The notes: generated from the sequence alone by a model not told the origin. Positions 33,076 through 64,000 are shown, numbered from the stretch's first letter. The stretch is 64,000 nucleotides of DNA from an uncultured delta proteobacterium (GCA_963823335.1 CAWGLD010000001.1:288001-352000), one strand, 5' to 3'. Numbers and translations: made by a program.

Positions 33076-36015
33076 ATGGATCGTCGGACCTTTCTGAAAA
33101 TAGCCGGTATGGGAAGTCTGGCCTTTGCTTCTTCCTGTACCTCCGAGAGCGACAAAAAACTCTTCTCTCTGGTACAGGCTCCTGCAGACATGGTTACGGG
33201 AAAAGCCAACTGGTATGCTTCCACCTGCCGCGAGTGTCCCGCTGGATGCGGAATTCTGGCGAAAAACCGTGAAGGGCGGATCATAAAGATAGAAGGGAAC
33301 CCGCTGCACCCCATCAACAAAGGCAGGCTCTGCATGCGAGGCCAGGCTGCTCTGCAGGGGGTCTACCACCCGAACCGGCTCAAGGCACCTCTGCTCAAAA
33401 AAAATGGCCGGTTTCAGGCGCTCTCATATTCTGAAGCGACAACGCTCCTGAATTCAAAGGCACTCGCTGCCCGCAATGGATCGAATCGGGCACGCATACT
33501 CACGGAAACAGTCGGTCAAAACCTCATGCGCTTGTTCTCCGATGCATTGCAGAATCTGAACAGCCCACCACCACTCGTGTTCGAACCCTATGCCTATGAA
33601 TCGTTGAAAACCGCCAACAAACTGGTGTTCGGTATCGATGGTCTACCATCTTATCGCATGGACCAGGCAGACCTTCTGGTCTCTTTTGGCGCTGATTTTC
33701 TGGAAACCTGGCTGTCCCCTGTGGAATATGCCTGGAAATTCAAAACCATGCACGCCCATCAGGCTGACACCAAAAATAATTATATTCACATCAGCCCCTT
33801 TCAATCCCTGACCGGTGCCAATGCGGATCTGTGGCTTGCATGCCAACCCGGAGCAGAGCATCTCATCACCCTCGGCCTGATAAAACAGGTCCTGGACGCC
33901 GGTATGGGTCAGTCACTTTCTCCAACCTTCCGGCAGGTCTTGACCACATCCGCAGCCCCTTTTGATCGCAATTTCGTTATTCAGCACACCGGAATATCTC
34001 CACACGGGTATGACAGCCTGGTCCAAGGTCTCGTGCAAGCACGCCGCCCGCTGATTATAGGATCAGGTACCGGTGCCGCCGACACCCATGGATTGACGAC
34101 CCAGGTATGCGTCAACCTGCTCAATCTTCTTCTGGACCCGCAACTTCGCCTGCTGGACTTCACCCGGCGTCATCGGGTGGAAACAGCTGCCAGGCGGGCA
34201 GATATCCTGAGCTTCTTCGACACACTCGATAATGACGCCGTTGAACTGCTGCTGATTAACAATGCCAACCCCGTCTTCTGCATGTCATCCGACAGTTCCG
34301 TGACAGAGGTGCTCGAAAGAAGCGACCGTTTTGTGGTCTGCTTCAGCAATTTTCTGGACGAAACCACAGCATCGGCGGACTTGATTCTGCCGGTACGTAT
34401 GCCCCTCGAGACCTGGGACGAATACGGCGGAAAAAGCGGGATGACGTCGACCCTTCAGCCGGCCATGGGCCAACTGACCCAGACCCCTCATCTGGGGGAT
34501 GTGATACTGAAAACCTGCTTTGGGCCGGAATATTCTTTCAAGGCCTACAAAGATCACCTTGTTTCCATGCTGGCCGGAACCTTTGAAATAGCCGATGAAT
34601 TCAAGTGGGCCAAAACCCTGCAGCAGGGGGGCCGCTTTGACCCGCCGCAATCACCGATCGAATTGCGGCAGCCACCCACCACAGACGCCATTACGACACT
34701 GCTTAGGCAAGGATCTGAATTCAAGACACCGCAACTGACATTTACGGCCACACCCTCCATCCGTTTTTTTGACGGACGGGGTGCCAACAGACCCTGGCTC
34801 TGTGAAATCCCGGATCCTTTATACCGAATTGCCTGGCAGACACCGGTGGTCATGCATCCTGAAACCGCCCGGGCCAACAACGTCGAGCAGGAAGATGTCA
34901 TCGGTATTGAATCCCCTTTCGGCAGTCTGGAAGCACCGGCGGTTCTTTCCGAACTGGTGATGCCGGGGCTCCTGGTCATGACCATCGGGCAGGGTCACCG
35001 GCCTTTTGGAAACGAAACTGAAGTTGCAGGGGTGAACCCCCTGCAGTTGCTTTCCCCAATAGCCCACAAGGACTCCGGCGGCGCCGACCTCCATGCAACC
35101 GGCATCAAGGTACGCAAAACAGGCCGTACCATGAAACTGGCCAGCACCTCGGGCAGCCTGACACAACACGGGCGGACGCTGGCCCTTTCCGTGACGCTGG
35201 CGGAACTGCAGGATAGAAAGACACCCGCCAGATCCGGTCTCACCATGGGAAATTTTCCCCTCACACTCCCCTTACCCGAAGGATACGACCCAAAACGCGA
35301 TGTGTACCCTCCCCATGACCACGATACCTATCGCTGGGGAATGGTGGTGGATCTGGACAGATGTATCGGCTGCGGTGCCTGTTCAGCAGCCTGTTACGCT
35401 GAAAACAATATCGGGGTCGTGGGAGAAAAACGGATCCTGCAAGGCCGTGAGATGGCCTGGATGAGCGTCGAGCGCTACCATGCATCCGACCGGATGGAAA
35501 GGGTGACCTTTCTGCCCATGATGTGCCAGCACTGTGACAACGGCCCGTGCGAGTCGGTCTGCCCGGTGTATGCCCCGCACCATTCCAAGGAGGGCCTGAA
35601 CAACCAGATTTACAACCGCTGTATCGGTACCCGCTACTGTGTTCAGAACTGCCCCTACAAGGTGCGCCGCTTCAACTGGTTTACCTGGGAATGGCCCGAA
35701 CCCATGAATCTTCAACTCAACCCGGATGTCACCGTCCGCAGCAAAGGGGTCATGGAAAAATGTTCCTTCTGTATTCAGCGCATCAAGGCGGCCCATAACG
35801 TTGCCAAGAATGAAAACCGCTTGATCCGGGATGGTGAGGTGCTGCCGGCCTGTGTACAGACCTGCCCCACCAACGCCCTTGTTTTCGGGAACCTGATGGA
35901 CAAAACCAGCCGCGTCCGTAAACTGACCGAGAGTCCCCGTGCCTACCAGGCCCTGGGGTACCTCAATACCAAACCGGCCGTGATATACCTGAAAAAGGTG
36001 GTCCAAGAGATATGA
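33076..36015 (+). CDS. actB: alternative complex III subunit B (molybdopterin-oxidoreductase-like domain fused to a 4Fe-4S dicluster domain)
   Basis: Start at ATG 33076 with Tat signal MDRRTFLK; CRECPAGC; C-terminal CIGCGAC, CQHCDNGPC, CIGTRYC...CPY and CSFC. Confidence 0.85.
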   Translation: MDRRTFLKIAGMGSLAFASSCTSESDKKLFSLVQAPADMVTGKANWYASTCRECPAGCGILAKNREGRIIKIEGNPLHPINKGRLCMRGQAALQGVYHPNRLKAPLLKKNGRFQALSYSEATTLLNSKALAARNGSNRARILTETVGQNLMRLFSDALQNLNSPPPLVFEPYAYESLKTANKLVFGIDGLPSYRMDQADLLVSFGADFLETWLSPVEYAWKFKTMHAHQADTKNNYIHISPFQSLTGANADLWLACQPGAEHLITLGLIKQVLDAGMGQSLSPTFRQVLTTSAAPFDRNFVIQHTGISPHGYDSLVQGLVQARRPLIIGSGTGAADTHGLTTQVCVNLLNLLLDPQLRLLDFTRRHRVETAARRADILSFFDTLDNDAVELLLINNANPVFCMSSDSSVTEVLERSDRFVVCFSNFLDETTASADLILPVRMPLETWDEYGGKSGMTSTLQPAMGQLTQTPHLGDVILKTCFGPEYSFKAYKDHLVSMLAGTFEIADEFKWAKTLQQGGRFDPPQSPIELRQPPTTDAITTLLRQGSEFKTPQLTFTATPSIRFFDGRGANRPWLCEIPDPLYRIAWQTPVVMHPETARANNVEQEDVIGIESPFGSLEAPAVLSELVMPGLLVMTIGQGHRPFGNETEVAGVNPLQLLSPIAHKDSGGADLHATGIKVRKTGRTMKLASTSGSLTQHGRTLALSVTLAELQDRKTPARSGLTMGNFPLTLPLPEGYDPKRDVYPPHDHDTYRWGMVVDLDRCIGCGACSAACYAENNIGVVGEKRILQGREMAWMSVERYHASDRMERVTFLPMMCQHCDNGPCESVCPVYAPHHSKEGLNNQIYNRCIGTRYCVQNCPYKVRRFNWFTWEWPEPMNLQLNPDVTVRSKGVMEKCSFCIQRIKAAHNVAKNENRLIRDGEVLPACVQTCPTNALVFGNLMDKTSRVRKLTESPRAYQALGYLNTKPAVIYLKKVVQEI

Positions 36016-37328
36016 CCCAGCTGAGCTACGCAAAAATCGATCAAACCATTCTGGACACGCTAACACCCCCGAAATGGACCTACTGGGGCATCCTGGTGTT
36101 GCTGCTTCTGGGTGTCCTGACTGGAGCGGCCTGCTGGACGTACCAGATTTTTGTCGGTATCGGGGTGGGTGGGCAAAACAACCCGGTGGCCTGGGGAACC
36201 TATCTGATCAACTTTGTCTTCTGGGTGGGAATCGCTCACTCGGGCACCTTGATTTCCGCTATTCTGCACCTTTTCAGGGCCGGGTGGCGCAATCCCATCG
36301 CCCGGGCAGCGGAAACCATGACGGTATTTGCGGTCTGTGTGGCAGGGCTGTTTCCATTTATCCATCTGGGACGTGTATGGCAGGTGTATTACATGCTCCC
36401 CATACCGAGCCAGAGACTCCTGTGGCCCAACTTCCTTTCACCGCTCATGTTTGACGTGATCGCCATCAGCACCTATCTCACCGTGAGCTCCCTGTTCTGG
36501 TACACAGGCATGTTGCCGGATCTGGCGGCTGTGCGGGACCGCTCCACAGGAACCCGCCACAAAATATTTAGCTTTCTCTCCTTTGGCTGGTCAGGGGCCC
36601 ATGAACAGTGGCGTCATTACACCCGCGGGTATCTCTTCTTTGCGGCCCTGGCAACGCCCCTGGTCATCTCCGTTCACAGCGTCGTTTCCTGGGATTTTGC
36701 CCTGGGTGTCGTGCCGGGATGGCACACAACCATTTTTGCGCCCTATTTTGTCGCCGGTGCTATCCATTCCGGTCTGGCCATGGTCCTGACCCTGATGATC
36801 CCCTTGCGCAAGTTGTTCAAATACGAGGACATCATTACCATGGAGGTTCTGCAGAATGTTGCCAAGACCATCGTATTGACCGGTCTGATTGTCGGCCTGG
36901 CCTACGGAACCGAATATTTCATCGCCTGGTACAGCCACAACAGCGTTGAAATGGAACAGTTCCGCTGGCGAGCCCTGGGAGATTACCGCTGGGGGTTTTT
37001 CTTCATGGTGCTCTGCAACACCCTGGTCCCGCTGCTCTTTTTGTTTAAAAAAATTCGCACCACCGTTGCATCTCTTTTTATCATTTCCCTGGTCGTAAAT
37101 TTCGGGATGTGGTGGGAACGCTTTGTCATCATCGTGGGCGGGGTCGCCCACGGGTTTGCACCCCATGCCTGGGGGCTCTACAGACCCACGATGATTGAAT
37201 TCGGCATTATGTTCGGTGCCTTCTGTCTCTTTTTCTTCTTGTTCGTGTTGTTTGTAAAACACCTGCCCTCTGTTTCCATGACCGAGATGAAAGAGACCCT
37301 CGAAGGAGGTCACGATCATGCCGCATGA
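36012..37328 (+). CDS. actC: alternative complex III subunit C (NrfD family)
   Basis: NFVFWVGIAHSGTLISA, RAAETMT, VISVHSVVSWDF and GWHTTIFAPYFVAGAI. Confidence 0.92.
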   Translation: MTQLSYAKIDQTILDTLTPPKWTYWGILVLLLLGVLTGAACWTYQIFVGIGVGGQNNPVAWGTYLINFVFWVGIAHSGTLISAILHLFRAGWRNPIARAAETMTVFAVCVAGLFPFIHLGRVWQVYYMLPIPSQRLLWPNFLSPLMFDVIAISTYLTVSSLFWYTGMLPDLAAVRDRSTGTRHKIFSFLSFGWSGAHEQWRHYTRGYLFFAALATPLVISVHSVVSWDFALGVVPGWHTTIFAPYFVAGAIHSGLAMVLTLMIPLRKLFKYEDIITMEVLQNVAKTIVLTGLIVGLAYGTEYFIAWYSHNSVEMEQFRWRALGDYRWGFFFMVLCNTLVPLLFLFKKIRTTVASLFIISLVVNFGMWWERFVIIVGGVAHGFAPHAWGLYRPTMIEFGIMFGAFCLFFFLFVLFVKHLPSVSMTEMKETLEGGHDHAA

Positions 37329-39218: not shown

Positions 39219-39727
39219 AAAAAAACAAGACCGCCATTCTGTTAAGCGTATCAGCGCTGATTTTCACGGCCGGCTTTCTGTTTTTATTCTATGGCATATC
39301 TTCCGATGCAATGGGTCCGGAACAACCCATACCCTTCAGCCACAATGTTCACGTTGGCATCAAACAGATACAATGTCAGTACTGCCACCCCTATGTGGCC
39401 TATTCGACCTTTCCGGGGATACCACCGGTGGAAAAGTGTCTTCACTGCCATAACTATATCATTGCCAACCACCCATGGATACAGGAGGAACACCGCTATT
39501 TCGATACCGGAAGTCCCACGCCATGGAAAAAAGTCAACTACGTTGCCGAACACGTTCTTTTCAACCACCAGCGGCACATCAACAAGAAAGTGGCCTGTCA
39601 GGAGTGCCATGGTCCGGTGGAGAATCAACATCGCCTGCCGGCTAAAACCTGGCGTATGGGCATGTGTATCGAATGCCACCAGCAAAAAGGTGCCAATCTG
39701 GACTGCTGGCTGGCTTGCCACAGCTAA
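39215..39727 (+). CDS. actA: alternative complex III pentaheme cytochrome c subunit A
   Basis: TTG start overlapping the actF stop; one TM helix; PEQPIPFSH; CQYCH, CLHCH, CQECH, CIECH and atypical CWLACH. Confidence 0.85.
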   Translation: MKKNKTAILLSVSALIFTAGFLFLFYGISSDAMGPEQPIPFSHNVHVGIKQIQCQYCHPYVAYSTFPGIPPVEKCLHCHNYIIANHPWIQEEHRYFDTGSPTPWKKVNYVAEHVLFNHQRHINKKVACQECHGPVENQHRLPAKTWRMGMCIECHQQKGANLDCWLACHS

Positions 39728-39741
39728 TTGAAGGAGTGACT

Positions 39742-41115
39742 TTGGCTACCGAAGAAACTGAAAAAAAGATCTACCAGAACCAGACGGCCAGGGCCTTTGT
39801 CTTGACATCGGCTTCCTGGTTCGCCGTGGCGACAACCTTCGGACTTATCGCCGCAGGATACCTGATGGCACCTGATTTCATGGCCAATATCGAATATATT
39901 CACTTCGGACGCATGCGCCCCATGCACATCAACGCCGTGCTGTTTGGATTCGTGACCCCCGGTCTTCTGGCAGTCGCTTTCTACTATATACCCCGCATGC
40001 TGCGCACGGAGCTCTACAACCACAAGCTGGGTGTTCTGAGCGCCATCTTTTGGAATATCACGGTGACTGCCGGTATGATCGGAATTTCTCTGGGACATAC
40101 CCAGGGGCGGGAATATGCGGAGCTGCCCTGGCTGGTGGACATCATGGTGGTCATTTCCTTCACACTGGTGGCCGTCAACCTGCTCATGACCATCGCCAGA
40201 CGTAAAGAACCCATCCTGTATGTTTCCATCTGGTATGCCATGTCGGCCGTCATTCTCACGGCCTGTACCTATTGTCTGGGCAATGTCATCTGGAAACCGG
40301 ATACGGGCGCCCTGGTGGGCATACCTGATGCGATTCTATTGTGGTTTTACGGCCACAATATCTTCGGTCTCTTGTTATCCCCCATGGCGCTGGCTGTGGC
40401 GTATTATGTGCTGCCAATCGCCACCCGCAGCCCCCTTTACAGTCACACCATGTCTCTGGTGGGGTTCTGGTCACTCATCATCGTCTATACCCACGTGGGT
40501 ACCCATCACCTGCTCCAGGTCCCGGTGCCCACCTGGTTGAAAACCATCTCCATTGTGGACAGCGTGGCCATGGTTATTCCGGTGATGATTGTTTTGATCA
40601 ACCTCTGGTACACGGTGAAAGGCAAGTTGGGGGATATCCACGCCGACGTCGGTGCCAAGTTCGTGTTTACCGGCACCATCTATTATTTCTTCGTCAATAT
40701 GCAGGGATCCATGATGGCACTGCCGCATGTCCAGCGTATCACCCATTTCAACAACTGGGTTGTGGGGCATGCGCATATCGGTGTGCTCGGTTTTGCCGGC
40801 ATCACCGCCCTGGGAGGCATCTATTTTATTCTGCCCAGGATGACCGGCAAACCGCTCTACAGCAGGTTTCTGGCAGATCTGCAATACTGGCTGGTTCTGA
40901 TCGGAATCACCGGTTTTGCAGTGGTGCTCACCACTGCGGGCCTTATTCAGGGCAATGCCTGGTATAACGGTGAAACCCTCTACCGGACACTGCCTGAAAT
41001 TCAACCCTACTATATTTTAAGAGCGTCCCTGGGTGCACTGATCGTGATCGGTGCTTATCTTGGACTGTATAACGTGGTTCGATCTCTCTATTTTAATCGT
41101 GGAGCTTCAACATGA
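39742..41115 (+). CDS. ccoN: cbb3-type cytochrome c oxidase subunit I
   Basis: TTG start after AAGGAG; FGRMRPMH, GREYAE, WFYGHN, GTHHL and GHAH. Confidence 0.92.
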   Translation: MATEETEKKIYQNQTARAFVLTSASWFAVATTFGLIAAGYLMAPDFMANIEYIHFGRMRPMHINAVLFGFVTPGLLAVAFYYIPRMLRTELYNHKLGVLSAIFWNITVTAGMIGISLGHTQGREYAELPWLVDIMVVISFTLVAVNLLMTIARRKEPILYVSIWYAMSAVILTACTYCLGNVIWKPDTGALVGIPDAILLWFYGHNIFGLLLSPMALAVAYYVLPIATRSPLYSHTMSLVGFWSLIIVYTHVGTHHLLQVPVPTWLKTISIVDSVAMVIPVMIVLINLWYTVKGKLGDIHADVGAKFVFTGTIYYFFVNMQGSMMALPHVQRITHFNNWVVGHAHIGVLGFAGITALGGIYFILPRMTGKPLYSRFLADLQYWLVLIGITGFAVVLTTAGLIQGNAWYNGETLYRTLPEIQPYYILRASLGALIVIGAYLGLYNVVRSLYFNRGAST

Positions 41116-42044
41116 AGATGACGCCAACCGTCATCATTGTCGGTATCCTGTCTCTGCTGACGGCCATTATCCTGACCATTGTCTACTGGCCGTATACACA
41201 GCGTATAACAGAGCCTTCCGAGATTTTCCGTGAACGGGTGCCCGTAGAGGCTGCCGGGCGCAAAATCTATCTGGAAAACGGTTGCGTATATTGTCACAGC
41301 CAGTCCATTCGTTCCATCGACTGGGGCCACGGCGCAGACCGAATTGCTCAGCCGGGTGACTATATTGCCGATGAACCCATTGCACTGGGATCGCAACGTA
41401 CCGGTGTAGACCTCTCCCAGGAAGGCGGTGAACACCCGGATGACTGGCATATCACCCATTTTGTCAATCCGCGCTACACACGGCCTGCCTCCATCATGCC
41501 TCCCTTCGAGTGGTTGGGCATGGAGCGTATCCAGACACTGACGCATTATATGCAAAGCCTGGGATTCAAGAATGCGGACAAACGTATGGAGCGGCAGCAT
41601 TACTGGAAGAAAGAAGCCATCAAGGCCTATGAATCCGGACCTGACATCAACATCCAATGGTTGTCTGATATCACCCCCGAGGGGTGGCGAAACATACCGA
41701 ACCCGTATCCCACTACCCGCGCCGGTCTGCAGCGGGGACACAAAATCTATCAAAATTTCTGTATCGGCTGTCACGGACCCATTGGTGACGGGATGGGTCC
41801 CGGACAACCCTGGATGTACCCACCCCCCTTGAATTTTACCGTATTGAAGGGCAGAGGCATCTCGGGCGGCATTCTTTACTACCAGATCATGAACGGCATC
41901 ACCGGAACCGCCATGCCCTATTTCAAGCGGGACCTGGAGTCACAGAAAATATGGGAGGTGGGTGACTACGTTGCGGTCAACTTTATCAATCAAAGCGATG
42001 CCAATACAGAACCGCGGGGTATTGATTCGGCGTGGGAGCCTTAA
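41112..42044 (+). CDS. ccoO: cbb3-type oxidase subunit II with a fused second cytochrome c domain
   Basis: GCVYCHSQSIR, GSQRTGVDL and SIMP; second heme site CIGCH...TAMP. Confidence 0.88.
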   Translation: MKMTPTVIIVGILSLLTAIILTIVYWPYTQRITEPSEIFRERVPVEAAGRKIYLENGCVYCHSQSIRSIDWGHGADRIAQPGDYIADEPIALGSQRTGVDLSQEGGEHPDDWHITHFVNPRYTRPASIMPPFEWLGMERIQTLTHYMQSLGFKNADKRMERQHYWKKEAIKAYESGPDINIQWLSDITPEGWRNIPNPYPTTRAGLQRGHKIYQNFCIGCHGPIGDGMGPGQPWMYPPPLNFTVLKGRGISGGILYYQIMNGITGTAMPYFKRDLESQKIWEVGDYVAVNFINQSDANTEPRGIDSAWEP

Positions 42045-42218
42045 GAGCAGGGTTCGAGGGTTCAAGGGTGATACAAGGGTTGGAGGGTAAGCCCTTAAGC
42101 GATAAGCAGCTTACCGCTTAAGGTTTATAGCTTGAACCCTTCAATTTAAATTACACAACGTGTTAGGATGGTTAAAGTTTTAGATATCAACTACGAGCTA
42201 TGAGCTGTAAGCAACAAC

Positions 42219-42308
42219 AAATAACGCGCGAAGCGCTAATGTCGTCCGTAGGACAAATGACGCACGCAGTGCTAATGACATCCGAAGGATAGATGACGCC
42301 TGAAAGGC
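42219..42308. repeat. array of five GNA-triloop mini-hairpins with an exact 18-nt period
   Basis: GCGC-GAA-GCGC, GTCC-GTA-GGAC, GCAC-GCA-GTGC, ATCC-GAA-GGAT and GCCT-GAA-AGGC, each preceded by a 7-nt WAATGAC-like linker. Confidence 0.85.
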
Positions 42309-42312
42309 AACT

Positions 42313-42573
42313 ATGTACTTCCCCTATTACATCGCCTATATGACGGCCGGTTTTGTCATTACCCTTGTGGTGTTTTTCTGGGCCTTGAACCAGGGTCAAT
42401 TCAAGGACCAGACGCGTGCACGCTTCATACCCCTTGAAGCCGATGGCAATACCAAACCGGTAAAGGCTTCACGATTTGCCCGGCTGGAAACCATCGCGCT
42501 GTTCACACTAGTGGGTATCGGGCTGGCGGCATCGGCTGCCGTTGTCACTTTTGCGCTGCTAAAGGCATTATAA
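42313..42573 (+). CDS. ccoS: CcoS-like cbb3 oxidase assembly protein
   Basis: FFWALNQGQFKD...A matches the CcoS pattern; extra C-terminal TM helix. Confidence 0.7.
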   Translation: MYFPYYIAYMTAGFVITLVVFFWALNQGQFKDQTRARFIPLEADGNTKPVKASRFARLETIALFTLVGIGLAASAAVVTFALLKAL

Positions 42574-42656
42574 CAACAACTGTGATGCACGCAAACGAAC
42601 GATGACTCTGGGCATGCTAAAAGGTGCGGCCGGAATCGAATGTAGTTGCGTGGGAA

Positions 42657-42830
42657 TAAATACTAAATTCGAATTTCGAAATACGAAACAAATTCTAATA
42701 TCAAATGCTCCAATGACCCAAACAGAGTCCATGGGCTTGATTTTTTTGATATCCTGTTTGGAAAATTAGAATTTAGGTAATTGGATATTGTTTAGAATTT
42801 TGAAATTTGTGCTTCGGGTTTAATTTGTTT
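42657..42830. repeat. AT-rich imperfect inverted-repeat element
   Basis: A-rich left arm (AAACAAATTCTAATATCAAAT...) mirrored by a T-rich right arm (...ATTGGATATTGTTTAGAATTT). Confidence 0.55.
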
Positions 42831-42908
42831 TGATATGCCAATATAGCCGACTGGTAAAAACCTGGCCAGAATTACCAGGCGGTATTTATTGATAAAGAGG
42901 ACTTAAAA

Positions 42909-43184
42909 ATGCGATATTTCGAACTGCTGGGTGTTCAGCATTATATCATGTATCTGTTCCCTGCCGTTGTGTTCGCGCTGCTGTTTGCCATTGGTCTCGG
43001 GTTTTACCATTTTCGAACAAAAGACGCTGAGGATCGTGAAACCCGTATCGTCGAAACTTTTCCCGATGGCATCCAGGGCCGCAACGCCCCGTTTCCGGCC
43101 ATCGCCTACTTGACCATTGCAGGTACCCTCGCCTGGGTGTTGGCATATATACTCACGATCGGTTTTCTGGAGATAAGCATCTGA
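42909..43184 (+). CDS. small two-TM hypothetical protein
   Basis: 91 aa; GAGG RBS; FPDGIQGRNAPFP resembles the DGI.E.DNP.P segment of CcoP N-termini. Confidence 0.6.
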   Translation: MRYFELLGVQHYIMYLFPAVVFALLFAIGLGFYHFRTKDAEDRETRIVETFPDGIQGRNAPFPAIAYLTIAGTLAWVLAYILTIGFLEISI

Positions 43185-43468
43185 TGGAACAGACAGGACA
43201 TCACCTATCGACAATAAAAACCTGGTCCGTCGTTATTCTGATGGTGGGATGGGTATTCTTTAAAGGCTGGCTGGCATATCATGTGATAGGCGACCTTGGC
43301 CAGCCGGACTGGGACTACCGGCCCATAAAGGACGTTCCAGCTGAATCGGCATTTGCCGTCAACGAACCATACCATCCTCTGCCGTCTGCTCAGCATGTGC
43401 TGGGTCGACAGGGGCAAGAGGAAAACCCATCACACTTATCCGTGGTGCCGCTTCAAGGTGTTCAATAG
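43184..43468 (+). CDS. small membrane hypothetical protein
   Basis: 94 aa; translationally coupled to both neighbours. Confidence 0.6.
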   Translation: MEQTGHHLSTIKTWSVVILMVGWVFFKGWLAYHVIGDLGQPDWDYRPIKDVPAESAFAVNEPYHPLPSAQHVLGRQGQEENPSHLSVVPLQGVQ

Positions 43469-43987
43469 ATGAAAAAACTGATTGGACTCTTCATCTTGGC
43501 TGGTATCATCAGCCTGGCAGCCTACCAGGCCCTGATGTACTACGACAACAACTTCCGTTACGGTCGTATGCGGGAAACCCCGGGGGTCAAACCCCACGAG
43601 ACCCCTTTACTGGTCTCGGAACCGGATATCGTTCCCATCCATGGCGGAGACGCAGTCTACCGGTTAACACCGGCAGCTGATCTGCTGGCACCCCTCGACA
43701 TGCAGGCATCCGCCACCATTACCAGGGGCGAAAACCTCTATCGTGTATACTGTGCCCAGTGCCATGGCAACAACTTCGATGGCAAAGGTACCGTTGGACA
43801 AAGTTTTCAACCCTTGCCTGCCAACCTTCGTGGCCCCGAGGTTCAGGCAAAAACAGAAGGTGAATTATTCAAATCCATCAGTTTCGGTATTCCGGGCGGT
43901 CGTCAGCCCGCCCTCGACACAACCATCGCACCGGATGACCGCTGGTATATCATCGCCTTTGTTCAATCCCTGGATCATGACAAATAA
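43469..43987 (+). CDS. monoheme cytochrome c, ActE-like
   Basis: RMRETP and RGENLYRVYCAQCHG...G.G; lies in the act/cco cluster. Confidence 0.75.
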   Translation: MKKLIGLFILAGIISLAAYQALMYYDNNFRYGRMRETPGVKPHETPLLVSEPDIVPIHGGDAVYRLTPAADLLAPLDMQASATITRGENLYRVYCAQCHGNNFDGKGTVGQSFQPLPANLRGPEVQAKTEGELFKSISFGIPGGRQPALDTTIAPDDRWYIIAFVQSLDHDK

Positions 43988-46484
43988 AACCTGTGATCTA
44001 TGTGGCTTGTCCCTCCGGCATGGCGCTGTCAGTGCCATCATTTCCGAAAAATCCATGCAGTTCTGCTGCTTTGGCTGCAAGCAGGTCTATGAAATCTTGT
44101 TGGCCGCTTCAGGCGACCTGGCTCCGGATGAATTCAGGGAAACGGACATTTTCAAACGTTGCCTGGCAGCCGGTATCATTCCGGAATCCATGGACGACCT
44201 TGAAAAGAAGAAGCTGTCAACCACACCGGGAAAAGTACCCGGCCGGATCCGGGAACCCAAAATGGCCGACAACGAACCCGCATCTGAATCGGATGACGGG
44301 CTTTGGCTCGATCTGAATGTCCGCGGTATGTGGTGCCCGGCCTGCGCCTGGGTGGTTGAAGAAACATTGATCAAAGAACCGGGTGTAAAACAGGCCAAAT
44401 GCCAATTTACCACAGACCGCATCAAACTCAAATACAACCCGGTTCTCACCTCGCCGCAACACCTCATGGAGGCCATGAAAAAGATTGGATATCATGGCAG
44501 CCCTGTCGAAGACGGACAAAAAAAACCTGAGTCCAGAAAAGAATTTATCCGGCTGGGTATTTCGGCCTTTCTGACCATGAATGTGATGATGCTTTCTTTT
44601 GCCCTCTATACCGGTTTTTTCACCCAGCTTTCTGCAGACACCATCCATCATTTCACCTGGCCCATTGTTGTCATGGCTTCGGCGGTCTTTATTTATGGTG
44701 GCGCCCCAATTCACCGCAAGGCCGTGTCCGGCCTGTCGACGGCATCGCCCGGCATGGAAACTCTCATCAGCATGGGCGCCGGCAGTGCTTTTTTTTACAG
44801 CCTGTTCAACTGGTTCACAGGAAGTATCCATCTCTATTTCGATACCACGTGCATGTTGATCAGTCTGGTTCTGGTGGGCAAGGCCATCGAGCAGCGAACC
44901 AAAGACAGGATCAATGCCCAGATCAGCAGGTTTTTTGAACTTCAGCCTTCCAAGATAAGGATTTGCACGGAAAAATTTCCCCAGGGAAAATACATGCAAG
45001 CCCGGCTGCTGTCTCCCGGAGACATTTTTCGGGTCGAAGCAGGGGAAATCGTCCCGGCAGACGGTAGAATCCTGAAGGGAGACGCGCGCATCGATGAAAG
45101 CACCCTGACCGGTGAAGCAAGACCGATTCATAAACAAAAAGGAGACATGCTAAACAGTGGAACGACGATCATCTCAGGCGCCCTCCAGGTATCGGCTCAC
45201 GCTGTAGGTGAGAATTCCCTGGTTGGGCAGTTGATATCCGTCATGGAAGCTTCCCTGGATCAGAAAGCGCCGATGGAAGATATCACCGATAAGGCTCTGA
45301 AATATTTCGTTCCCGCCATCATATTGCTGGCCATGGGAACGGCCATGGTTTGCCTGTTCCTTGGCTTCAGCGCTCAACATGCCATCATTCGTGCCGTCAC
45401 CGTCATGGTAATCTCCTGCCCCTGTGCCCTGGGCTTTGCCATTCCACTGGCAAGGGTGGCCGGAATCTCCCTGGCAGGCAAAAACGGAATTCTCGTTCAC
45501 CACTTCTCGGCCTTTGAAAAGATCAGAAAAATCGACACGTTTGTTTTCGACAAAACCGGCACCCTCACCAGGGGTGAATGGGATTTGATAGAAATAGAGA
45601 CGCTGGGTCACTGGTCTGTGGACAACGTCCTCTCCCTTGCCGCCGGCCTGGAGTCCCATTCAGACCATTATGCCGCAGAGGCCATTGTTCATGCTGCTCG
45701 GGAAAACAAGCGTGTGCCTGCAACAGCCACACGCATTACAGAAACAGACAACGGCATTTCCGGTTATGTGGAAAACAGTCTTGTCAAAATCGGGTCCGCT
45801 GCATTTTTTCCCGCTGAAACCGTCACCCCCCGGCAATACCATGGCGACGAAAAAGCAGATACGGCAGCTGTCATTTCCACCGTACACATGCGTGTCGATG
45901 AGAAGCCCTGCGCCCTGTTTCATTTTGGCGATACGCTACGTTCATCGAGCAAAACCGTTATTCAAGACTTGAAGGATCGCGGTATGCAGCTTGCCCTGAT
46001 ATCGGGCGACGGCCAGGGAACCACCCGAATGATCGCTAATCTTGTCGGTATTTCAGAATACCGCGGCAATATGCTGCCTGAAAACAAGTCTGAATTTGTC
46101 AGGACCTTACGGGAACGGGGACATTTGGTAGCCATGGTCGGCGACGGTGTCAATGATGTTCCGGCGCTCGCTTCCGCCGATCTGGGAATCGCTGTTCATT
46201 CCGGGCATCGAATCGGCATGGAAGCATCCGGTATTACCTTGATGGGAAATGACCCCGCCCAGATACTCACCTTTACCGCACTCGCCTCACATGTCTCCCG
46301 CACGATTAAACAGAATCTCGTTTTTACCTTTCTGTACAACATCATCAGTATCCCCATCGCCATGAGCGGTCTTCTGAATCCACTGGTTGCGGTTTCCGCC
46401 ATGCTCATGAGCAGCTTAAGCGTCACAGGAAACACCCTGTACCTCACCCGGCGGGTATCCAGACAAAAAGATGAAATCGCATAG
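43977..46484 (+). CDS. ccoI: heavy-metal P1B-type ATPase (CcoI/FixI-like)
   Basis: Start at ATG 43977; CDLC...CCFGC, GMWCPAC, TGE, CPC, DKTGTLT and GDGVND. Confidence 0.88.
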   Translation: MTNKTCDLCGLSLRHGAVSAIISEKSMQFCCFGCKQVYEILLAASGDLAPDEFRETDIFKRCLAAGIIPESMDDLEKKKLSTTPGKVPGRIREPKMADNEPASESDDGLWLDLNVRGMWCPACAWVVEETLIKEPGVKQAKCQFTTDRIKLKYNPVLTSPQHLMEAMKKIGYHGSPVEDGQKKPESRKEFIRLGISAFLTMNVMMLSFALYTGFFTQLSADTIHHFTWPIVVMASAVFIYGGAPIHRKAVSGLSTASPGMETLISMGAGSAFFYSLFNWFTGSIHLYFDTTCMLISLVLVGKAIEQRTKDRINAQISRFFELQPSKIRICTEKFPQGKYMQARLLSPGDIFRVEAGEIVPADGRILKGDARIDESTLTGEARPIHKQKGDMLNSGTTIISGALQVSAHAVGENSLVGQLISVMEASLDQKAPMEDITDKALKYFVPAIILLAMGTAMVCLFLGFSAQHAIIRAVTVMVISCPCALGFAIPLARVAGISLAGKNGILVHHFSAFEKIRKIDTFVFDKTGTLTRGEWDLIEIETLGHWSVDNVLSLAAGLESHSDHYAAEAIVHAARENKRVPATATRITETDNGISGYVENSLVKIGSAAFFPAETVTPRQYHGDEKADTAAVISTVHMRVDEKPCALFHFGDTLRSSSKTVIQDLKDRGMQLALISGDGQGTTRMIANLVGISEYRGNMLPENKSEFVRTLRERGHLVAMVGDGVNDVPALASADLGIAVHSGHRIGMEASGITLMGNDPAQILTFTALASHVSRTIKQNLVFTFLYNIISIPIAMSGLLNPLVAVSAMLMSSLSVTGNTLYLTRRVSRQKDEIA

Positions 46485-46601
46485 CGATTTAATTTGGGTT
46501 GACAAATTACGGAATTAATTTAATTTTTAGTCCCCCGTTTGCAACAAGGTGATAAAGTTTCTCCTGGCAGGGGTGAAAGTATACACTAGCTCGAACATTA
46601 A

Positions 46602-47309
46602 ATGAACGAACCCAACGAAAATATCGACTTAAAAGAAATTTTGCATTTTGATGGTCATGCTGTGGATTGGTGGGATCTCAAGGGTCCCCTGAAGGCCCTG
46701 CATGAGATCAACCCCTTGCGCCTGCAGTATATCCAAAAGCATGCCGGTATTGCGGGAAAAACTTTTCTGGACGTCGGGTGCGGTGGTGGGATTCTGTCGG
46801 AAGCACTGGCCTCGGCCGGTGGATATGTGACCGGAATAGATATGACGGAATCTGCCTTGAGTGCCGCGCGAGAGCATTTAATAAAAACAAATCAGCGGCT
46901 TCAATACCGCCGTACAACTGTCGAAGAACATTCAAGGGAAAGCCAAAACCGTTACGACAGCATTACATGCATGGAGTTACTGGAACACGTTCCCCGGCCG
47001 GCATCGGTGTTAAGTGCCTGCGCTCGGCTTCTTAAACCTGGCGGTGATATGTTTATCGCCACCATCAACCGAACATGGACGGCGTATATATTGGTAATCC
47101 TGGCGGCTGAGTATCTATTGAGAATTGTTCGCAAAGGCACCCATACATATGGAAACTTCATTCAGCCCCAGGAAATCAGCCATTGGGCAGCAGATATTGG
47201 CATGAAAACAATGGATCTTGGCGGCTATTTATACAACCCTTTTACAGGAAACACGCGTCTGTCATCCTTCACCGGAATGAATTACCTGATGCATTTGAGA
47301 AAAGTATGA
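46602..47309 (+). CDS. ubiG: UbiG-type O-methyltransferase
   Basis: WWDLKGPLKALHEINPLR, LDVGCGGGILSE, CMELLEHVP, TINRT and AEYLL...GTH. Confidence 0.9.
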   Translation: MNEPNENIDLKEILHFDGHAVDWWDLKGPLKALHEINPLRLQYIQKHAGIAGKTFLDVGCGGGILSEALASAGGYVTGIDMTESALSAAREHLIKTNQRLQYRRTTVEEHSRESQNRYDSITCMELLEHVPRPASVLSACARLLKPGGDMFIATINRTWTAYILVILAAEYLLRIVRKGTHTYGNFIQPQEISHWAADIGMKTMDLGGYLYNPFTGNTRLSSFTGMNYLMHLRKV

Positions 47310-48166
47310 ATAAACCGACAAAAAACAGACTCAACGACTGGAAACCACCTGCCTGGCTTGACAAAAACGAACGCCAGAAAATGCTCGATGCCTATGTGGA
47401 TTCATCGGACACCGCCTACTTTGGGTTCAAGCGGCATCGGGCCGCTGAAAAAGCAAAATCCGTTTTATCTCATTTCAATCGTGTGGCTCCCAAGTATGAT
47501 TTCATGAACTCCGTTCTCAGCTTCGGAATTCATCACGCCTGGAAGAGGACGGCCATCCGTATGCTCCATCTGAAACCGGGTGATCAACTTCTGGACGTCT
47601 GTGGTGGTACCGGGGATCTGGCGGTCCTTTCCGCTGCACGCATCGGGAGTGACGGCCATGTCTTTATTTATGACATCAATCGCGCCATGATGGCAACCGG
47701 AAGAGACCGGCCTGAAAACCAGGAGAAGCGCTCGTGTATTCACTATATCGAAGGTGATGCGGAACAGATAGCCTGTCATGAAAATCGGTTTGATGCCGCC
47801 ATTGTCGGGTTTGGCATCCGGAATCTGACCCATCTTGAAAAAGGTTTTCAGGAAATGTACCGGGTTTTGAAACCGGGTGGGAAGGTCATGTGCCTGGAAT
47901 TTTCAAAACCCACCAACCCCCTGTTCCGCTGGTTATATGACTTCTATTCCTTCAATATCATGCCCTTTGCCGGTTCTGTCCTGGCCGGTTCGCGACAGTC
48001 TTATGCCTGCCTGTCCCAAACCATTCGCATGTTTGCATCTCCGGATGAATTGAAAAATATTCTCGAAAGCATCGGATTTGAAGCGGTTTCGTACAAGCGC
48101 CTGACCAACGGTATCGCCGTAATCCATATGGGCCGCAAACCTCCAAGCAATCGCTCGATGCTGTAA
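47306..48166 (+). CDS. ubiE: UbiE/MenG C-methyltransferase
   Basis: ATGA overlap with ubiG; VAPKYDFMN.VLSFGIHHAWK, LDVCGGTGD, FGIRN and LEFSKP. Confidence 0.92.
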   Translation: MNKPTKNRLNDWKPPAWLDKNERQKMLDAYVDSSDTAYFGFKRHRAAEKAKSVLSHFNRVAPKYDFMNSVLSFGIHHAWKRTAIRMLHLKPGDQLLDVCGGTGDLAVLSAARIGSDGHVFIYDINRAMMATGRDRPENQEKRSCIHYIEGDAEQIACHENRFDAAIVGFGIRNLTHLEKGFQEMYRVLKPGGKVMCLEFSKPTNPLFRWLYDFYSFNIMPFAGSVLAGSRQSYACLSQTIRMFASPDELKNILESIGFEAVSYKRLTNGIAVIHMGRKPPSNRSML

Positions 48167-48199
48167 GTCGCTTGTCCATATCCAAAAAGGATTAAATGA

Positions 48200-49357
48200 A
48201 TGTTTGACTACAACCGGAAAATCGATTTGGATGGCGGAAAAATTGTCCAGATTGACAATGCGCTGGATGCAACATCACCTATATTCTTTGGATATGATAT
48301 CGAAGAGCGGTTCATTGACGTCCTTGATCGGTCGACACAGGATATGCCCGTTGACAGGCTTTTTTTGCTGACGGACCGCACTATCTTCGATTTTTTCGGT
48401 GAGAGGTATTTGAGCAGGCTCAGTGAAAGGTTTCCAGACACGGAACTGTACCTGCTCCCCGAGGGAGAAAAAAGCAAAACATTTGAGGTTCTTCAGCAGC
48501 TGTGCAATCAGCTCGTAGAGAAAGGGGTGAGTAAACAGTCGCTGCTGATCGCCTTCGGCGGAGGCTCCATCGGAAATATCACCGGTCTTGCCGCCGGTCT
48601 GATATTTAGAGGCATTCGATTCATTGAAGTTCCCACCACGCTTTCCCACCAGACCGATGGAATGCTCAGCAACAAGCAGGCTGTGAACGGAAGGTTCGGC
48701 AAAAATCACTTCGGGCTTTACCACACCCCTGTTTTTTCATGGACGGACACACGTTATCCCGAAACAGAGCCGTTGAGGTTCAAAAAATCCGGTATCGTCG
48801 AAGGAATCAAAAACGGCTTGATCGATCAGAAGGAATTTATCCGCTACCTGGAAAAAACCATTAAACAGCATGGCGATTATTCTCCACAAGAACTCACCGA
48901 TCTTTGCTACAAACTGATCATTTCAAAACTTGAAATTCTCAAAAAAGATCCAACGGAAAAGCATTACGGAATTATTCTTGAATACGGGCACACCTTTGCC
49001 CACGCCATCGAATGGCTTTCCAAGGGTAGCCTGGCTCACGGGGAAGCCGTTTCCATCGGCATGAAAATCGCAGCGGAGCTTTCCGCTGAATTGGGATATA
49101 TTGACAGTGACGCACTGGCCCTTCATTACCGTTTAATCGATGAGTTACTGGCACTCAAGCCCAGGCTTCCAGAAAAGATTGATCCACAGTCCATTCTCAA
49201 AACCATGGTTGTCGACAATAAAAAAACGGGCAGAAATGTGAGATATGTTCTTCTAGAAAAAATCGGACAATGCAAAAAAGGCAATGGAGATTATCTCATC
49301 AGCGTGGATAGAGAGATCGTTCAATCTGTGATTGAGGCGTTTATCAGTAAGTATTAA
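48200..49357 (+). CDS. 2-deoxy-scyllo-inosose synthase-like sugar-phosphate cyclase (DHQS superfamily)
   Basis: GGGSIGN, LSNKQAVN and DPTEK...ILEYGHT match BtrC-type residues rather than AroB (GD, GGKT, NxGHT). Confidence 0.75.
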   Translation: MFDYNRKIDLDGGKIVQIDNALDATSPIFFGYDIEERFIDVLDRSTQDMPVDRLFLLTDRTIFDFFGERYLSRLSERFPDTELYLLPEGEKSKTFEVLQQLCNQLVEKGVSKQSLLIAFGGGSIGNITGLAAGLIFRGIRFIEVPTTLSHQTDGMLSNKQAVNGRFGKNHFGLYHTPVFSWTDTRYPETEPLRFKKSGIVEGIKNGLIDQKEFIRYLEKTIKQHGDYSPQELTDLCYKLIISKLEILKKDPTEKHYGIILEYGHTFAHAIEWLSKGSLAHGEAVSIGMKIAAELSAELGYIDSDALALHYRLIDELLALKPRLPEKIDPQSILKTMVVDNKKTGRNVRYVLLEKIGQCKKGNGDYLISVDREIVQSVIEAFISKY

Positions 49358-49368
49358 AGGCAGCCAAA

Positions 49369-50322
49369 ATGGAGAAAAATGATTTGAAAGCATCGTCCGG
49401 GGCCTCCCCTTCACGCCGGAGTCGATGGCTCCGCACGTTAAATGTAACCGATGCGCCGGCCCATACGGACGCCCCCCATTGCGGATCCATCGGGCATGTT
49501 CTGCCGTTTCCAGAAAGTTGTCGTTTGGCGGACAAATTTGGATATGATGCCGTCAATGCCGATCGTTTCTTTTTAAAAGAACACGGCCCCATTCAGGCAG
49601 CCACCCTGCTGAAGCGACACAATATAAAGCCTGGCGCCTTTGCTTTTTCGGCGGCATTCAATGCCTGCTATTCCGACTCGGATTTCGAGCAAAGCCTTAC
49701 AGAATTCGAGCAGGATGTATCCTTGTGCAGAGAGGCGGGTTTCACGTACTGCGTGGGGTATGTGCAGCCCTCATCCCACACACTGGACTATTACGATCAC
49801 TTCGCACTTTTGTCTGGGCGTTTGAAACGCATAAAACCCCTGCTGGAAACATATGATGTGCGTCTAGGCCTGGAATTTATCGGTCCCACCACCATGCGCA
49901 TACGTCGAAAATTCGATTTCATACACACCATGGACGGCATCAGGAGTCTCATCGCCGCCGCCAACGCGCAGAACTGCGTGGGTTTCAAACTGGATACCCT
50001 GCATTGGTATACCAGTGGTGCAGGATTATTGGACATTGAAAAGCTTTCTGCCGAGGAAGTTGTTTATGTGGAGCTCAATGACGGTCTGAAGGGGGATTAC
50101 GACCGGTTCACATTACCCGAGTTTCAACGGGAATTGCCGGGAGCTGTCGGCACCATCGATATAGCCGGAATGCTCAGAAAACTCGATGCTATAGGCTTTG
50201 ATGGGCCGGTGGTTGTGGAACCATGGAATGCGCTGCTTCGTGAAATGAGCCCTGAGGAAGCCGTTGAGAAAGTAAAGCTTGCCTTGGATCTCAGTTTAAA
50301 TAAGGCCGGGATTGACGTCTGA
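49369..50322 (+). CDS. sugar phosphate isomerase/epimerase (xylose-isomerase-like TIM barrel)
   Basis: LGLEFIGP, LDTLHW, VELND, RELPG and VEPWN. Confidence 0.85.
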   Translation: MEKNDLKASSGASPSRRSRWLRTLNVTDAPAHTDAPHCGSIGHVLPFPESCRLADKFGYDAVNADRFFLKEHGPIQAATLLKRHNIKPGAFAFSAAFNACYSDSDFEQSLTEFEQDVSLCREAGFTYCVGYVQPSSHTLDYYDHFALLSGRLKRIKPLLETYDVRLGLEFIGPTTMRIRRKFDFIHTMDGIRSLIAAANAQNCVGFKLDTLHWYTSGAGLLDIEKLSAEEVVYVELNDGLKGDYDRFTLPEFQRELPGAVGTIDIAGMLRKLDAIGFDGPVVVEPWNALLREMSPEEAVEKVKLALDLSLNKAGIDV

Positions 50323-63413: not shown

Positions 63414-64000
63414 TTAAAACCGAAATCCCTTCCAGATAAAATACATACCCATTACCATCATCAAAACAGCACCGATCTGGTATACTTTTTCGCGCTGCCG
63501 CAACCAACGCAGATCCGTGAGTCTCGACACCAGAAAAAGCGCCGGCATGGTGCCGAAACCAAAACAGAGCATGAGACCCGCCCCGGAAAACACACCGCCC
63601 AGAGTGGTGTCTGCCTCCATTCCTGAGCGTGCAGCCGCAAGCAGGGCGGTATAAACCGGCCCGCAGGGCAGCAGCCCGAGAAGCAGTCCGAGAGGTAGAT
63701 ACATCAGGGGATGCTTCTTTTTCTGCAGCAGCTTTTTAAAAGCCCCGCTGATGAAGGTGCCAACCGGGGGCGCCGCCCGGAAGATGATACCGCTTGGCAC
63801 CCAGCCGGTCATTGCCAGACCCATCAGGATGATAAGGACACCCGCAGCCACCATGACCCCTTTTTGCAAACCATCGATACTTTCTGCAAAACGGGTGAAG
63901 GAGGCCATGCCACCTACGATTGCACCCAGGAGACCATAGGTCAGGGTTCGGCCGGTAGTGTAAAACAGATGGGGCCAGACCGATGGAGCACCCTTTAAAT
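63414..64000 (-). CDS. DsbD_2 / TauE-SafE-like membrane protein (5' end outside the window)
   Basis: Frame open to the window edge: HLFYTTGRTLTYGLLGA...GLLPCGPVY...FGFGTMP. Confidence 0.85.
   Translation of the reverse strand, partial: LKGAPSVWPHLFYTTGRTLTYGLLGAIVGGMASFTRFAESIDGLQKGVMVAAGVLIILMGLAMTGWVPSGIIFRAAPPVGTFISGAFKKLLQKKKHPLMYLPLGLLLGLLPCGPVYTALLAAARSGMEADTTLGGVFSGAGLMLCFGFGTMPALFLVSRLTDLRWLRQREKVYQIGAVLMMVMGMYFIWKGFRF

Follow-up and report, generated by a model that had tools for sequence, protein, structure and literature searches.

A 64,000-nucleotide stretch of DNA from an uncultured delta proteobacterium of sulfate-reducer type (GCA_963823335.1, CAWGLD010000001.1:288001-352000), here called the window, carries a set of four genes in which two quinone-type methyltransferase genes, ubiG and ubiE, are followed by genes for a sugar-phosphate cyclase and a TIM-barrel enzyme. 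A preliminary description of the window had proposed that the cyclase and the TIM barrel make a ring from sugar, and that UbiG and UbiE methylate this ring to a higher-potential quinone or a soluble shuttle. The comparisons reported here lend strong support to a cyclase and TIM barrel feeding the Ubi methylases; the chemistry of the ring and the quinone nature of the end product are put forward as proposals. Positions are counted in window coordinates, G000 is the genome carrying the window, and L and G numbers denote compared loci and genomes.

Results

The four-gene locus

The genes, all on the + strand, encode a ubiG-type O-methyltransferase (46602-47309, 235 aa, TIGR01983), a ubiE/menG-type C-methyltransferase (47306, an ATG, to 48166; 286 aa; PF01209, TIGR01934), a cyclase of the 3-dehydroquinate synthase (DHQS) fold assigned to the 2-deoxy-scyllo-inosose (DOI) synthase type (48200-49357, 385 aa, PF01761 plus PF24621), and a xylose-isomerase-like TIM barrel resembling IolI and 3u0h (49369-50322, 317 aa, PF01261). 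The arrangement is as previously described: the genes are co-directional, ubiG and ubiE overlap by 4 bp, the gaps that follow are 33 and 11 bp, and the listing of open reading frames (ORFs) agrees. No terminator-like site was found on the + strand at any of the three gene junctions, and the sole one in the unit (48581-48598) lies within the cyclase gene. A terminator-like hairpin is present at 46474-46490, between ubiG and the upstream ATPase gene, the number of such sites being not above that in shuffles; neither the promoter scan (4 sites) nor the terminator scan (10 sites) rose above shuffled sequence. That ubiG, ubiE, the cyclase gene and the TIM-barrel gene form one transcription unit is the best explanation. 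In four estuary-sample RNA libraries, contigs with identities of at least 95% match each of the four genes, and single contigs span the ubiG/ubiE junction (X14 record 10, X15 record 18), the ubiE/cyclase junction (X14 record 11) and the cyclase/TIM junction (X14 record 14, X15 record 23, X16 record 31), which is a weak hint of expression.

The cyclase

Both Pfam halves of the DHQS fold are found in the cyclase (PF01761, 90 bits; PF24621, 94 bits). On the aroB model TIGR01357 it scores 232.1 bits, under the cut-off of 305. A canonical aroB scoring 351 bits lies elsewhere in the genome (C1:660416-662332), seemingly fused, as read from its sequence, to a shikimate-dehydrogenase-like C-terminal half, and the window cyclase is therefore an extra paralogue. 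Among solved relatives found by phmmer in PDB, BtrC ranks first at 186 bits, followed by the best DHQS at 158, the ValA-type 4p53 at 83 and 5tpr at 72. Closeness to BtrC was judged from these bit scores and from aligned residues, in place of a tree with EEVS and DDGS. The BtrC-type residues pointed out in the preliminary description are indeed present in the alignment, as G125-N126, L156-S-N-K159-Q-A-V-N163 and E261-Y-G-H264-T. Where the cyclase has G125-N126, DHQS has GD, and E261-Y-G-H264-T is aligned with E243-Y-G-H246-T of BtrC, DHQS having Asn at the Glu position. Four residues before this Glu/Asn position, G257 is aligned with an Arg of the DHQS 3zok; in DHQS this Arg binds the substrate carboxylate. 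By its sequence, then, the cyclase is not a housekeeping DHQS and is of the DOI-synthase type. As to substrate, parts of PMC12904256 describe EboD as close in fold yet able to prefer mannose 6-phosphate.

The TIM barrel

The TIM-barrel protein scores 82.4 bits on PF01261 (cut-off 31.1), and its best profile matches in PDB are the uncharacterised protein 3u0h (1.5e-23) and IolI (7e-18). A Foldseek search with its AlphaFold model (pLDDT 85) ranks 3u0h and IolI first, followed by 5hmq, a QuiC1 dehydroshikimate dehydratase fusion (TM 0.67). IolI is an isomerase, and IolE and AsbF/QuiC are dehydratases of the same fold; that the nearest relatives, IolI and then the QuiC1 dehydroshikimate dehydratase domain, act on cyclohexanones is counted in favor of the proposal developed below. 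Residues E169, D209, H212, E235, N237, D238 and E284 are invariant in a 19-member alignment. Among these are the kept metal ligands E169, D209 and E284, and the His ligand of IolI is aligned to the invariant E235. Two closer assignments were tried and rejected. The one NCBIfam match, to QuiC, is weak (NF042435, 19.8 bits against a cut-off of 1200, E 2.3e-4), so that the likeness to QuiC/AsbF 3-dehydroshikimate dehydratases is one of fold only. Orthology to TIM2, a different TIM barrel found in many genomes of the window's order, or to EboE was dropped on pairwise BLAST E values of 1.0 (TIM2) and 1.5 (Nostoc EboE); from these comparisons, the window barrel, TIM2 and EboE appear to have nothing but their Pfam superfamily in common.

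UbiG, UbiE and a nearby UbiA-like gene

UbiG is matched by TIGR01983 over its full length with 248 bits (cut-off 102.95). UbiE scores 245 bits on PF01209, 237.6 on TIGR01934 (cut-off 158.35) and 233.8 on NF001244 (cut-off 216); its top score, 259.7, is on the MpqE model, yet under the cut-off of 335. No second full-length UbiE-type gene was found in the genome. As stated earlier, the window has no gene for a UbiA-type prenyltransferase. A search of the genome placed one 716 bases past the window end, at G000:C1:352716-353666 (window-equivalent 64716-65666), where a UbiA-like gene (PF01040, 89.6 bits; TIGR01475, 60.9 against a cut-off of 180.8) stands beside a divergent UbiB-like gene, also beyond the window end (TIGR01982, 418.6 against 487.55). 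In other families, the UbiA-like gene sits directly beside ubiG, ubiE or UbiB, and a neighborhood with CcdA/DsbD-like and UbiA-like/UbiB-like genes recurs beside ubiG or ubiE in G049 and G200.

In G000, a gene for a CcdA/DsbD-like membrane protein, whose 3' part is at the window edge (63414-64000, - strand), and a 148-aa ORF without a family, together at G000:C1:351414-352542, adjoin the UbiA-like gene. G049 and G200 have this pair of neighbors too, close to ubiE or to the UbiA-like gene, and both may belong to the system. Two other kinds of neighbor were seen near ubiG: a PHP-domain phosphoesterase with a DUF2064-glycosyltransferase fusion, a few genes away in four genomes (L117, L121-L123), and an adjoining EamA transporter in L119, L120 and L127. 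Outside the window, G000 also has a 577-aa IspH-UbiA fusion (G000:C1:1319939-1321672). It is the 'Rosetta stone' fusion of Desulfobacterales that a portion of PMC4746011 describes.

Distribution of the cyclase-TIM pair

A search for relatives of the cyclase gave 55 loci, with identities of 44-93%. A TIM barrel of the window type is on the same locus in 19 of the 55, mostly directly 3' of the cyclase gene, and these cyclase-TIM loci are from Desulfobacterales including Desulfosarcina, several cyanobacteria, and Oligoflexia/Silvanigrella. The complete ubiG-ubiE-cyclase-TIM order was found in four other species records, L004-L007, which are 81-93% identical to the window. The recurrence of this order in the four records, together with a cyclase in 5 of 10 genus genomes, shows that the arrangement is not just chance. 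It is restricted to one genus, the cyclase was found in 2 of 301 sampled genomes of the order, and at 51 of the 55 loci neither ubiG nor ubiE is within 6 kb, so that linkage of the four genes, if taken literally, is not conserved. In a functional sense it is conserved, through the other cyclases with TIM barrels beside ubiG and the UbiA-like gene described in the next section. An aminotransferase is absent among the conserved neighbors of the cyclase loci and there is no other aminoglycoside gene nearby, as had been noted for the window.

The cyanobacterial loci (L011-L054, e.g., L017:5998-10353) carry a cassette in which the cyclase is accompanied by an efflux-type major facilitator superfamily (MFS) transporter, an IolO/epimerase-like TIM barrel and a short-chain dehydrogenase/reductase (SDR). 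Counted over the 55 loci, the transporter is present at 34, this different TIM barrel at 30 and the SDR at 29. A cytochrome b561 or an OprB porin often joins the cassette, and in L049 a vanadium-haloperoxidase-like protein is encoded 3' of the cyclase. The gene content suggests that the product of the cyanobacterial cassette is probably exported. In a metagenome-assembled genome (MAG) of the Desulfobacteraceae (L055:5929-10596), cyclase and TIM-barrel genes (44% and 39% identity) are followed by genes for a radical SAM and a B12-binding radical SAM protein, which suggests another tailoring of the same carbocycle.

Other cyclase modules across the order

The sample comprised 301 genomes of the window's order. 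UbiG was counted where it scored over the cut-off, and a genome with UbiG or the UbiA-like protein was taken to have the ubi set. Besides TIM2, two cyclases were tallied: the EboD-like type (NF004852) and a type resembling myo-inositol-1-phosphate synthase (MIPS-like; PF01658/PF07994). UbiG is present in 128 of the 301 genomes and UbiA-like homologues (45-81% identity) in 139, with both in 119. TIM2, found in 114 of the 301, is in 110 of the 148 genomes with the ubi set versus 4 of the 153 without it; among UbiG-bearing genomes, 94 of 128 have it. The MIPS-like cyclase is in 94 of 301 (89 full matches and 5 at contig ends or broken), and 92 of these 94 also have TIM2. Strong matches to the EboD-like cyclase number 21 of 301, 12 with TIM2; by itself this cyclase is moderately enriched with UbiG (15 of 21 versus the base rate of 128 of 301). 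Sorted by cyclase partner, the TIM2 genomes have the MIPS-like cyclase in 92 cases, the NF004852 type in 12, both in none and neither in 10. When the window-type cyclase is included, any of the three cyclases is present in 110 of the 148 ubi-set genomes versus 7 of the 153 others.

Gene position is evidence independent of these co-occurrence statistics. In 17 sampled genomes from eight families (f1, f2, f12, f37, f40, f58, f69 and f73), ubiG is 5 kb or less from a cyclase-TIM pair. Examples are G298, with the order MIPS-TIM2-ubiG-UbiA-like, G148, G114, G073 and seven f58 genomes, in which cbb3 oxidase and ATPase genes are followed by ubiG, a myo-inositol-1-phosphate-synthase-like gene and TIM2. 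The order in G037 is TIM2-EboD-like-ubiG-UbiA-like-UbiB, its NF004852-type cyclase scoring 551 bits; elsewhere cyclases of this type are paired with EboE-like barrels. TIM2 is itself nearest to epimerase and isomerase models.

MIPS was found in none of 10 genomes of the window's genus, and neither TIM2 nor the EboD-like cyclase in any of the 4 genus genomes sampled. Five other carriers of the window-type pair were at hand, of which three have UbiG and one has TIM2, partial there. In one of the three with UbiG, Desulfosarcina alkanivorans, whose genome is complete, ubiG is about 110 kb from the window-type pair and TIM2 is absent. Judged by gene content, the DOI-synthase-like pair in the window's genus stands in for the MIPS-like/TIM2 module of most of the order. 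Directly 5' of ubiG-ubiE in G001 (G001:C1:196929-199693) are a MIPS-like gene with 4 in-frame TGA codons and a TIM2 gene split in two, which may be a decaying module or assembly errors. We had considered that the linkage seen in the window might be accidental, the cyclase being in 2 of 301 genomes versus 128 of 301 for UbiG; this was dropped after the co-occurrence and position results for the MIPS-like, EboD-like and TIM2 genes.

Quinone genes of the genome

Menaquinone genes were searched for in G000. MenD reaches at most 66 bits (cut-off 244), and MqnA/MqnD (PF02621) gave no match; in 10 of 10 genus genomes, the best scores are 154 against 342.7 for MenB and 32 against 428 for MqnC. A marginal MenA-like gene is at C5:452648-453655 (103.2, cut-off 102.15). 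Neither known menaquinone pathway is thus detected, and either the quinone route is unrecognised or the MAGs are incomplete there. The canonical ubiquinone pathway was not found in the genome either: no canonical UbiA and no ring hydroxylase scored over the cut-offs, UbiX and UbiC being outside the search. Two UbiD-family genes are present, one of them on C5. No Ubi-type flavin hydroxylase was found in the genome (best TIGR01988 score 24 bits) and nothing over the cut-off for UbiU/V, the U32 proteins scoring 207 and 151 versus 440 for the UbiU model; both results agree with a route that needs no hydroxylase.

Genomic setting

That the four genes follow an ACIII/cbb3 block is borne out by Pfam. 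Directly 5' of ubiG, on the + strand, 39664-46484 is taken up by cbb3 oxidase genes, a cytochrome c gene and a gene for a CcoI-like HMA-domain P-type ATPase; these include the COX1 subunit (39664-41115), a FixO/FixP fusion (41112-42044), the cytochrome c (43469-43987) and the ATPase, which ends at 46484. An NrfD-type ACIII-like subunit is encoded farther upstream (36012-37328). The gene order CcoN-CcoO/P-ATPase-ubiG was also found in L095, L097 and L131-L134. On the 3' side of the unit, Pfam identifies on the opposite strand a GAF-PP2C phosphatase, a molybdopterin oxidoreductase, a cytochrome b561 and a multihaem cytochrome. Farther along, the - strand segment 60292-62762 encodes a TsoB-like rhodanese/DsbD-type protein (701 bits; cut-off of the selenoprotein model 805) and, adjoining it, an ArsR/TsoR-like regulator with a rhodanese domain.

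Discussion

To our knowledge, the ring of every established respiratory quinone comes by way of shikimate/chorismate or is taken from tyrosine, and the benzoquinone routes that we know of need ring hydroxylases. We propose for the window system a route that would dispense with O2, ring hydroxylase, decarboxylase and chorismate. The DOI-synthase-like cyclase would close a hexose 6-phosphate, most likely glucose 6-phosphate, to a deoxy-inosose, and the metal-dependent TIM barrel would dehydrate or enolise this toward a ring of the 1,2,4-trihydroxybenzene type. Dehydration of DOI and other inososes to such a ring is a known chemical reaction. A UbiA-like enzyme would add the polyprenyl tail, UbiG would methylate one of the two catechol oxygens and UbiE a ring carbon. 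The resulting methoxy-methyl-polyprenyl-benzoquinol would be like demethoxyubiquinol, or like one of its positional isomers. The neighboring cbb3 and bd oxidase chains would use this product, and the four genes would be part of a dispersed system that includes the UbiA-like and UbiB-like genes past the window.

The proposal stands chiefly on the recurrence of cyclases with ubi genes. The same ubi genes are found next to hexose-phosphate cyclases of three unrelated types, each type accompanied by a TIM barrel, and the distributions of the three are complementary. The simplest interpretation is that a sugar-derived carbocycle is the head group, prenylated by the UbiA-like enzyme and methylated by UbiG, and the comparative evidence for such a head group is good. 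We hold it probable that the cyclase-TIM pair supplies the head group of the product made with ubiG and the UbiA-like gene. That this head group is aromatic, of the trihydroxybenzene type, has in our judgment slightly less than an even chance, and that the product is a working respiratory quinone is a more tentative proposal still. The explanation as a whole we regard as an even bet. The set is recurrently placed beside genes for cbb3, its copper ATPase and bd oxidase, and this placement suggests a role upon meeting O2. The soluble shuttle offered as an alternative in the preliminary description is less likely here, given that ubiG is accompanied by genes for a dedicated prenyltransferase, UbiA-like, and for a UbiB-like protein.

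The ebo genes are, by analogy, the nearest precedent. Like the window system, the ebo cluster has a DHQS-fold hexose-phosphate cyclase (EboD), a xylose-isomerase-like TIM barrel (EboE) and a UbiA-family prenyltransferase (EboC), and the window's order also has EboD-like cyclases (NF004852) and barrels resembling EboE. An ebo product that is aromatic and prenylated, with the cluster now tied to thallusin, is reported in a part of bioRxiv 10.64898/2026.05.21.724671, and sections of that preprint and of PMC12904256 propose that an inositol-phosphate-synthase route replaces EboD in some phyla. On sequence grounds, however, no window protein is an ebo family member. The window cyclase scores 138.5 on NF004852, versus a cut-off of 333; the TIM barrel has no EboE match (NF035939) at E up to 0.01, the UbiA-like protein has no EboC match (NF035940) at E up to 1e-10, and no EboA, EboB or EboF was found among the annotated neighbors of the window system, whose partners are instead UbiG, UbiE and UbiB-like genes and respiratory oxidases. 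With ubiquinone biosynthesis, including its O2-independent UbiT/U/V form, the system shares UbiG and UbiE/MenG members, UbiA-family and ABC1/UbiB-like proteins, and placement with high-affinity oxidases, but the proposed ring source is a sugar phosphate here and chorismate/4-hydroxybenzoate there. The motifs GN, LSxKQAVN and EYGHT are common to the window cyclase and BtrC of the 2-deoxystreptamine aminoglycoside pathways; unlike those pathways, the window system has no aminotransferase, glycosyltransferase or other aminoglycoside gene nearby and has a TIM barrel as partner, and its cyclase lineage is of Desulfobacterales and cyanobacteria, whereas the BtrC type is of Bacillales and actinomycetes. 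The TIM barrel resembles IolI, IolE and AsbF/QuiC, enzymes known for cyclohexanone-type substrates, in fold and in Glu/Asp/Glu metal ligands, but the identity is about 21% and Glu235 takes the place of the IolI His ligand. What would be new is the hybrid of an ebo-like ring supply with Ubi-type tailoring, both of known kinds. A literature search, with most subscription journals outside its scope, found no paper on an isoprenoid-quinone ring derived from sugar or cyclitol, or on this Desulfobacterales gene set.

Two other accounts of the pair deserve weight. The cyclase and TIM barrel might be an independent, mobile cassette that landed 3' of ubiE and has no ubi role, making a soluble deoxy-inosose-derived compound (a cyclitol, a hydroxyquinol or similar) that acts as an osmolyte, signal, metal ligand or extracellular reductant. 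The pair does stand alone among unrelated neighbors in L008, L009, L046 and L057, and the cyanobacterial cyclase keeps company with the efflux-type MFS transporter, TIM barrel and SDR (34, 30 and 29 of 55 loci). The cyclase is also rare and patchy: within the order 2 of 301 genomes have it and within the genus 5 of 10, the other half of the genus keeping ubiG-ubiE without it. A stray cassette, however, leaves unexplained why, in 7 other families, two unrelated cyclase-TIM modules lie beside ubiG and the UbiA-like gene and co-occur with these, and why TIM2 is mostly absent from carriers of the window-type pair (0 of 4 in the genus, and lacking in 4 of 5 others) versus its presence in 94 of 128 UbiG-bearing genomes; the 33-bp gap, free of a terminator-like site, argues for co-transcription with ubiE. 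We judge this account unlikely. No better odds are given to a non-aromatic deoxy-inosose or cyclitol, prenylated by the UbiA-like enzyme and O-methylated. In this account the TIM barrel would be an isomerase or epimerase, the product a membrane lipid, antioxidant or signal such as was formerly suggested for the ebo cluster, and ubiE a gene for menaquinone only. It draws on the isomerase function for which IolI, the nearest characterised relative of the barrel, is known, on the epimerase and isomerase models nearest TIM2, on the fully reduced inositol phosphate in which MIPS normally ends, and on the single UbiE-type gene of the genome. Parts of PMC12904256 and bioRxiv 10.64898/2026.05.21.724671 show that the ebo product was long held to be a prenylated cyclitol, but the linkage of the ebo genes to an aromatic ring, now reported in the latter source, tells against this account. 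So do the UbiB-like gene that travels with the UbiA-like gene and the repeated placement of the set beside cbb3, CcoI and bd oxidase genes. The UbiG family, moreover, is known for acting on catechol-type hydroxyls of prenylated phenols.

With a shikimate origin, the cyclase would be a second 3-dehydroquinate synthase and the TIM barrel dehydroshikimate-dehydratase-like, the two working with the housekeeping DHQ dehydratase toward protocatechuate, a precursor whose ring is already hydroxylated. The 232 bits of the cyclase on the aroB model, the weak QuiC match of the barrel (E 2.3e-4) and the QuiC1 fusion at Foldseek rank 3 lean that way. Against these, the cyclase falls short of the aroB cut-off and the genome has a canonical aroB elsewhere, Gly stands in place of the DHQS Arg and Glu, as in BtrC, in place of the DHQS Asn, and the QuiC score is 19.8 versus 1200. 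The protocatechuate route would still require a decarboxylase step, and the parallel modules use a MIPS-like enzyme, not one that acts on 3-deoxy-D-arabino-heptulosonate 7-phosphate (DAHP). We consider this origin highly improbable.

Several observations weigh against a sugar-derived quinone made by the window system. The exact four-gene linkage is lineage-specific, and 5 of 10 genus genomes keep ubiG-type genes in the same setting without the window-type cyclase; these five have no MIPS and one DHQS-family gene each. Outside the Desulfobacterales, the cyclase is found with efflux-type MFS transporters, a different TIM barrel and an SDR, and without ubi genes within 6 kb, so its product can be free and exported. 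Across the order, 38 of the 148 genomes counted as having the ubi set gave no cyclase of the three types, a further 7 genomes have a cyclase but no ubi set, and Fisher values for the co-occurrences overstate significance because the genomes are related. The sole UbiE/MenG-type gene of the genome is not, by its presence, specific to the proposed pathway, and the UbiA-like and UbiB-like proteins are under the curated cut-offs of the named Ubi families. In the TIM barrel the metal-ligand His of IolI is Glu, and isomerase and dehydratase are not separable for this protein, the fold search included. The RNA-library contigs prove no transcript and cannot show a single mRNA. Ubiquinone was not detected in sulfate reducers according to a portion of PMC4746011, and a 2026 survey, in the part consulted (PMC13386864), places the ubiquinone pathway in Desulfobacterota solely in the class GWC2-55-46. 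In that class, the same part of the survey reports, the ubi genes are placed with high-affinity oxidases.

In sum, a sugar-derived quinone, if real, would be a new answer to the problem of making higher-potential quinones without O2. It would inform the sequence of events when oxygen rose and the way in which sulfate reducers respire trace O2, and would account for 'UbiG' in organisms whose records list menaquinone alone. An orphan set of UbiG, UbiA-like, TIM-barrel and MIPS-like genes, very common in marine sediment bacteria, would thereby gain a function. The question is directly testable, since at least one carrier, Desulfosarcina alkanivorans PL12, is a named strain record. In the window's genus, where neither known menaquinone pathway was detected, such a quinone, if made, could even be the main one. 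About 40% of the sampled genomes carry the gene set, and it is conceivable, if on present evidence rather doubtful, that a large share of the Desulfobacterales makes an unrecorded isoprenoid benzoquinone with a ring from hexose phosphate and uses it with cbb3 and bd oxidases when these supposedly strict anaerobes encounter O2; among such organisms the cyclase, MIPS-like, EboD-like or DOI-synthase-like, may have been swapped at least twice.

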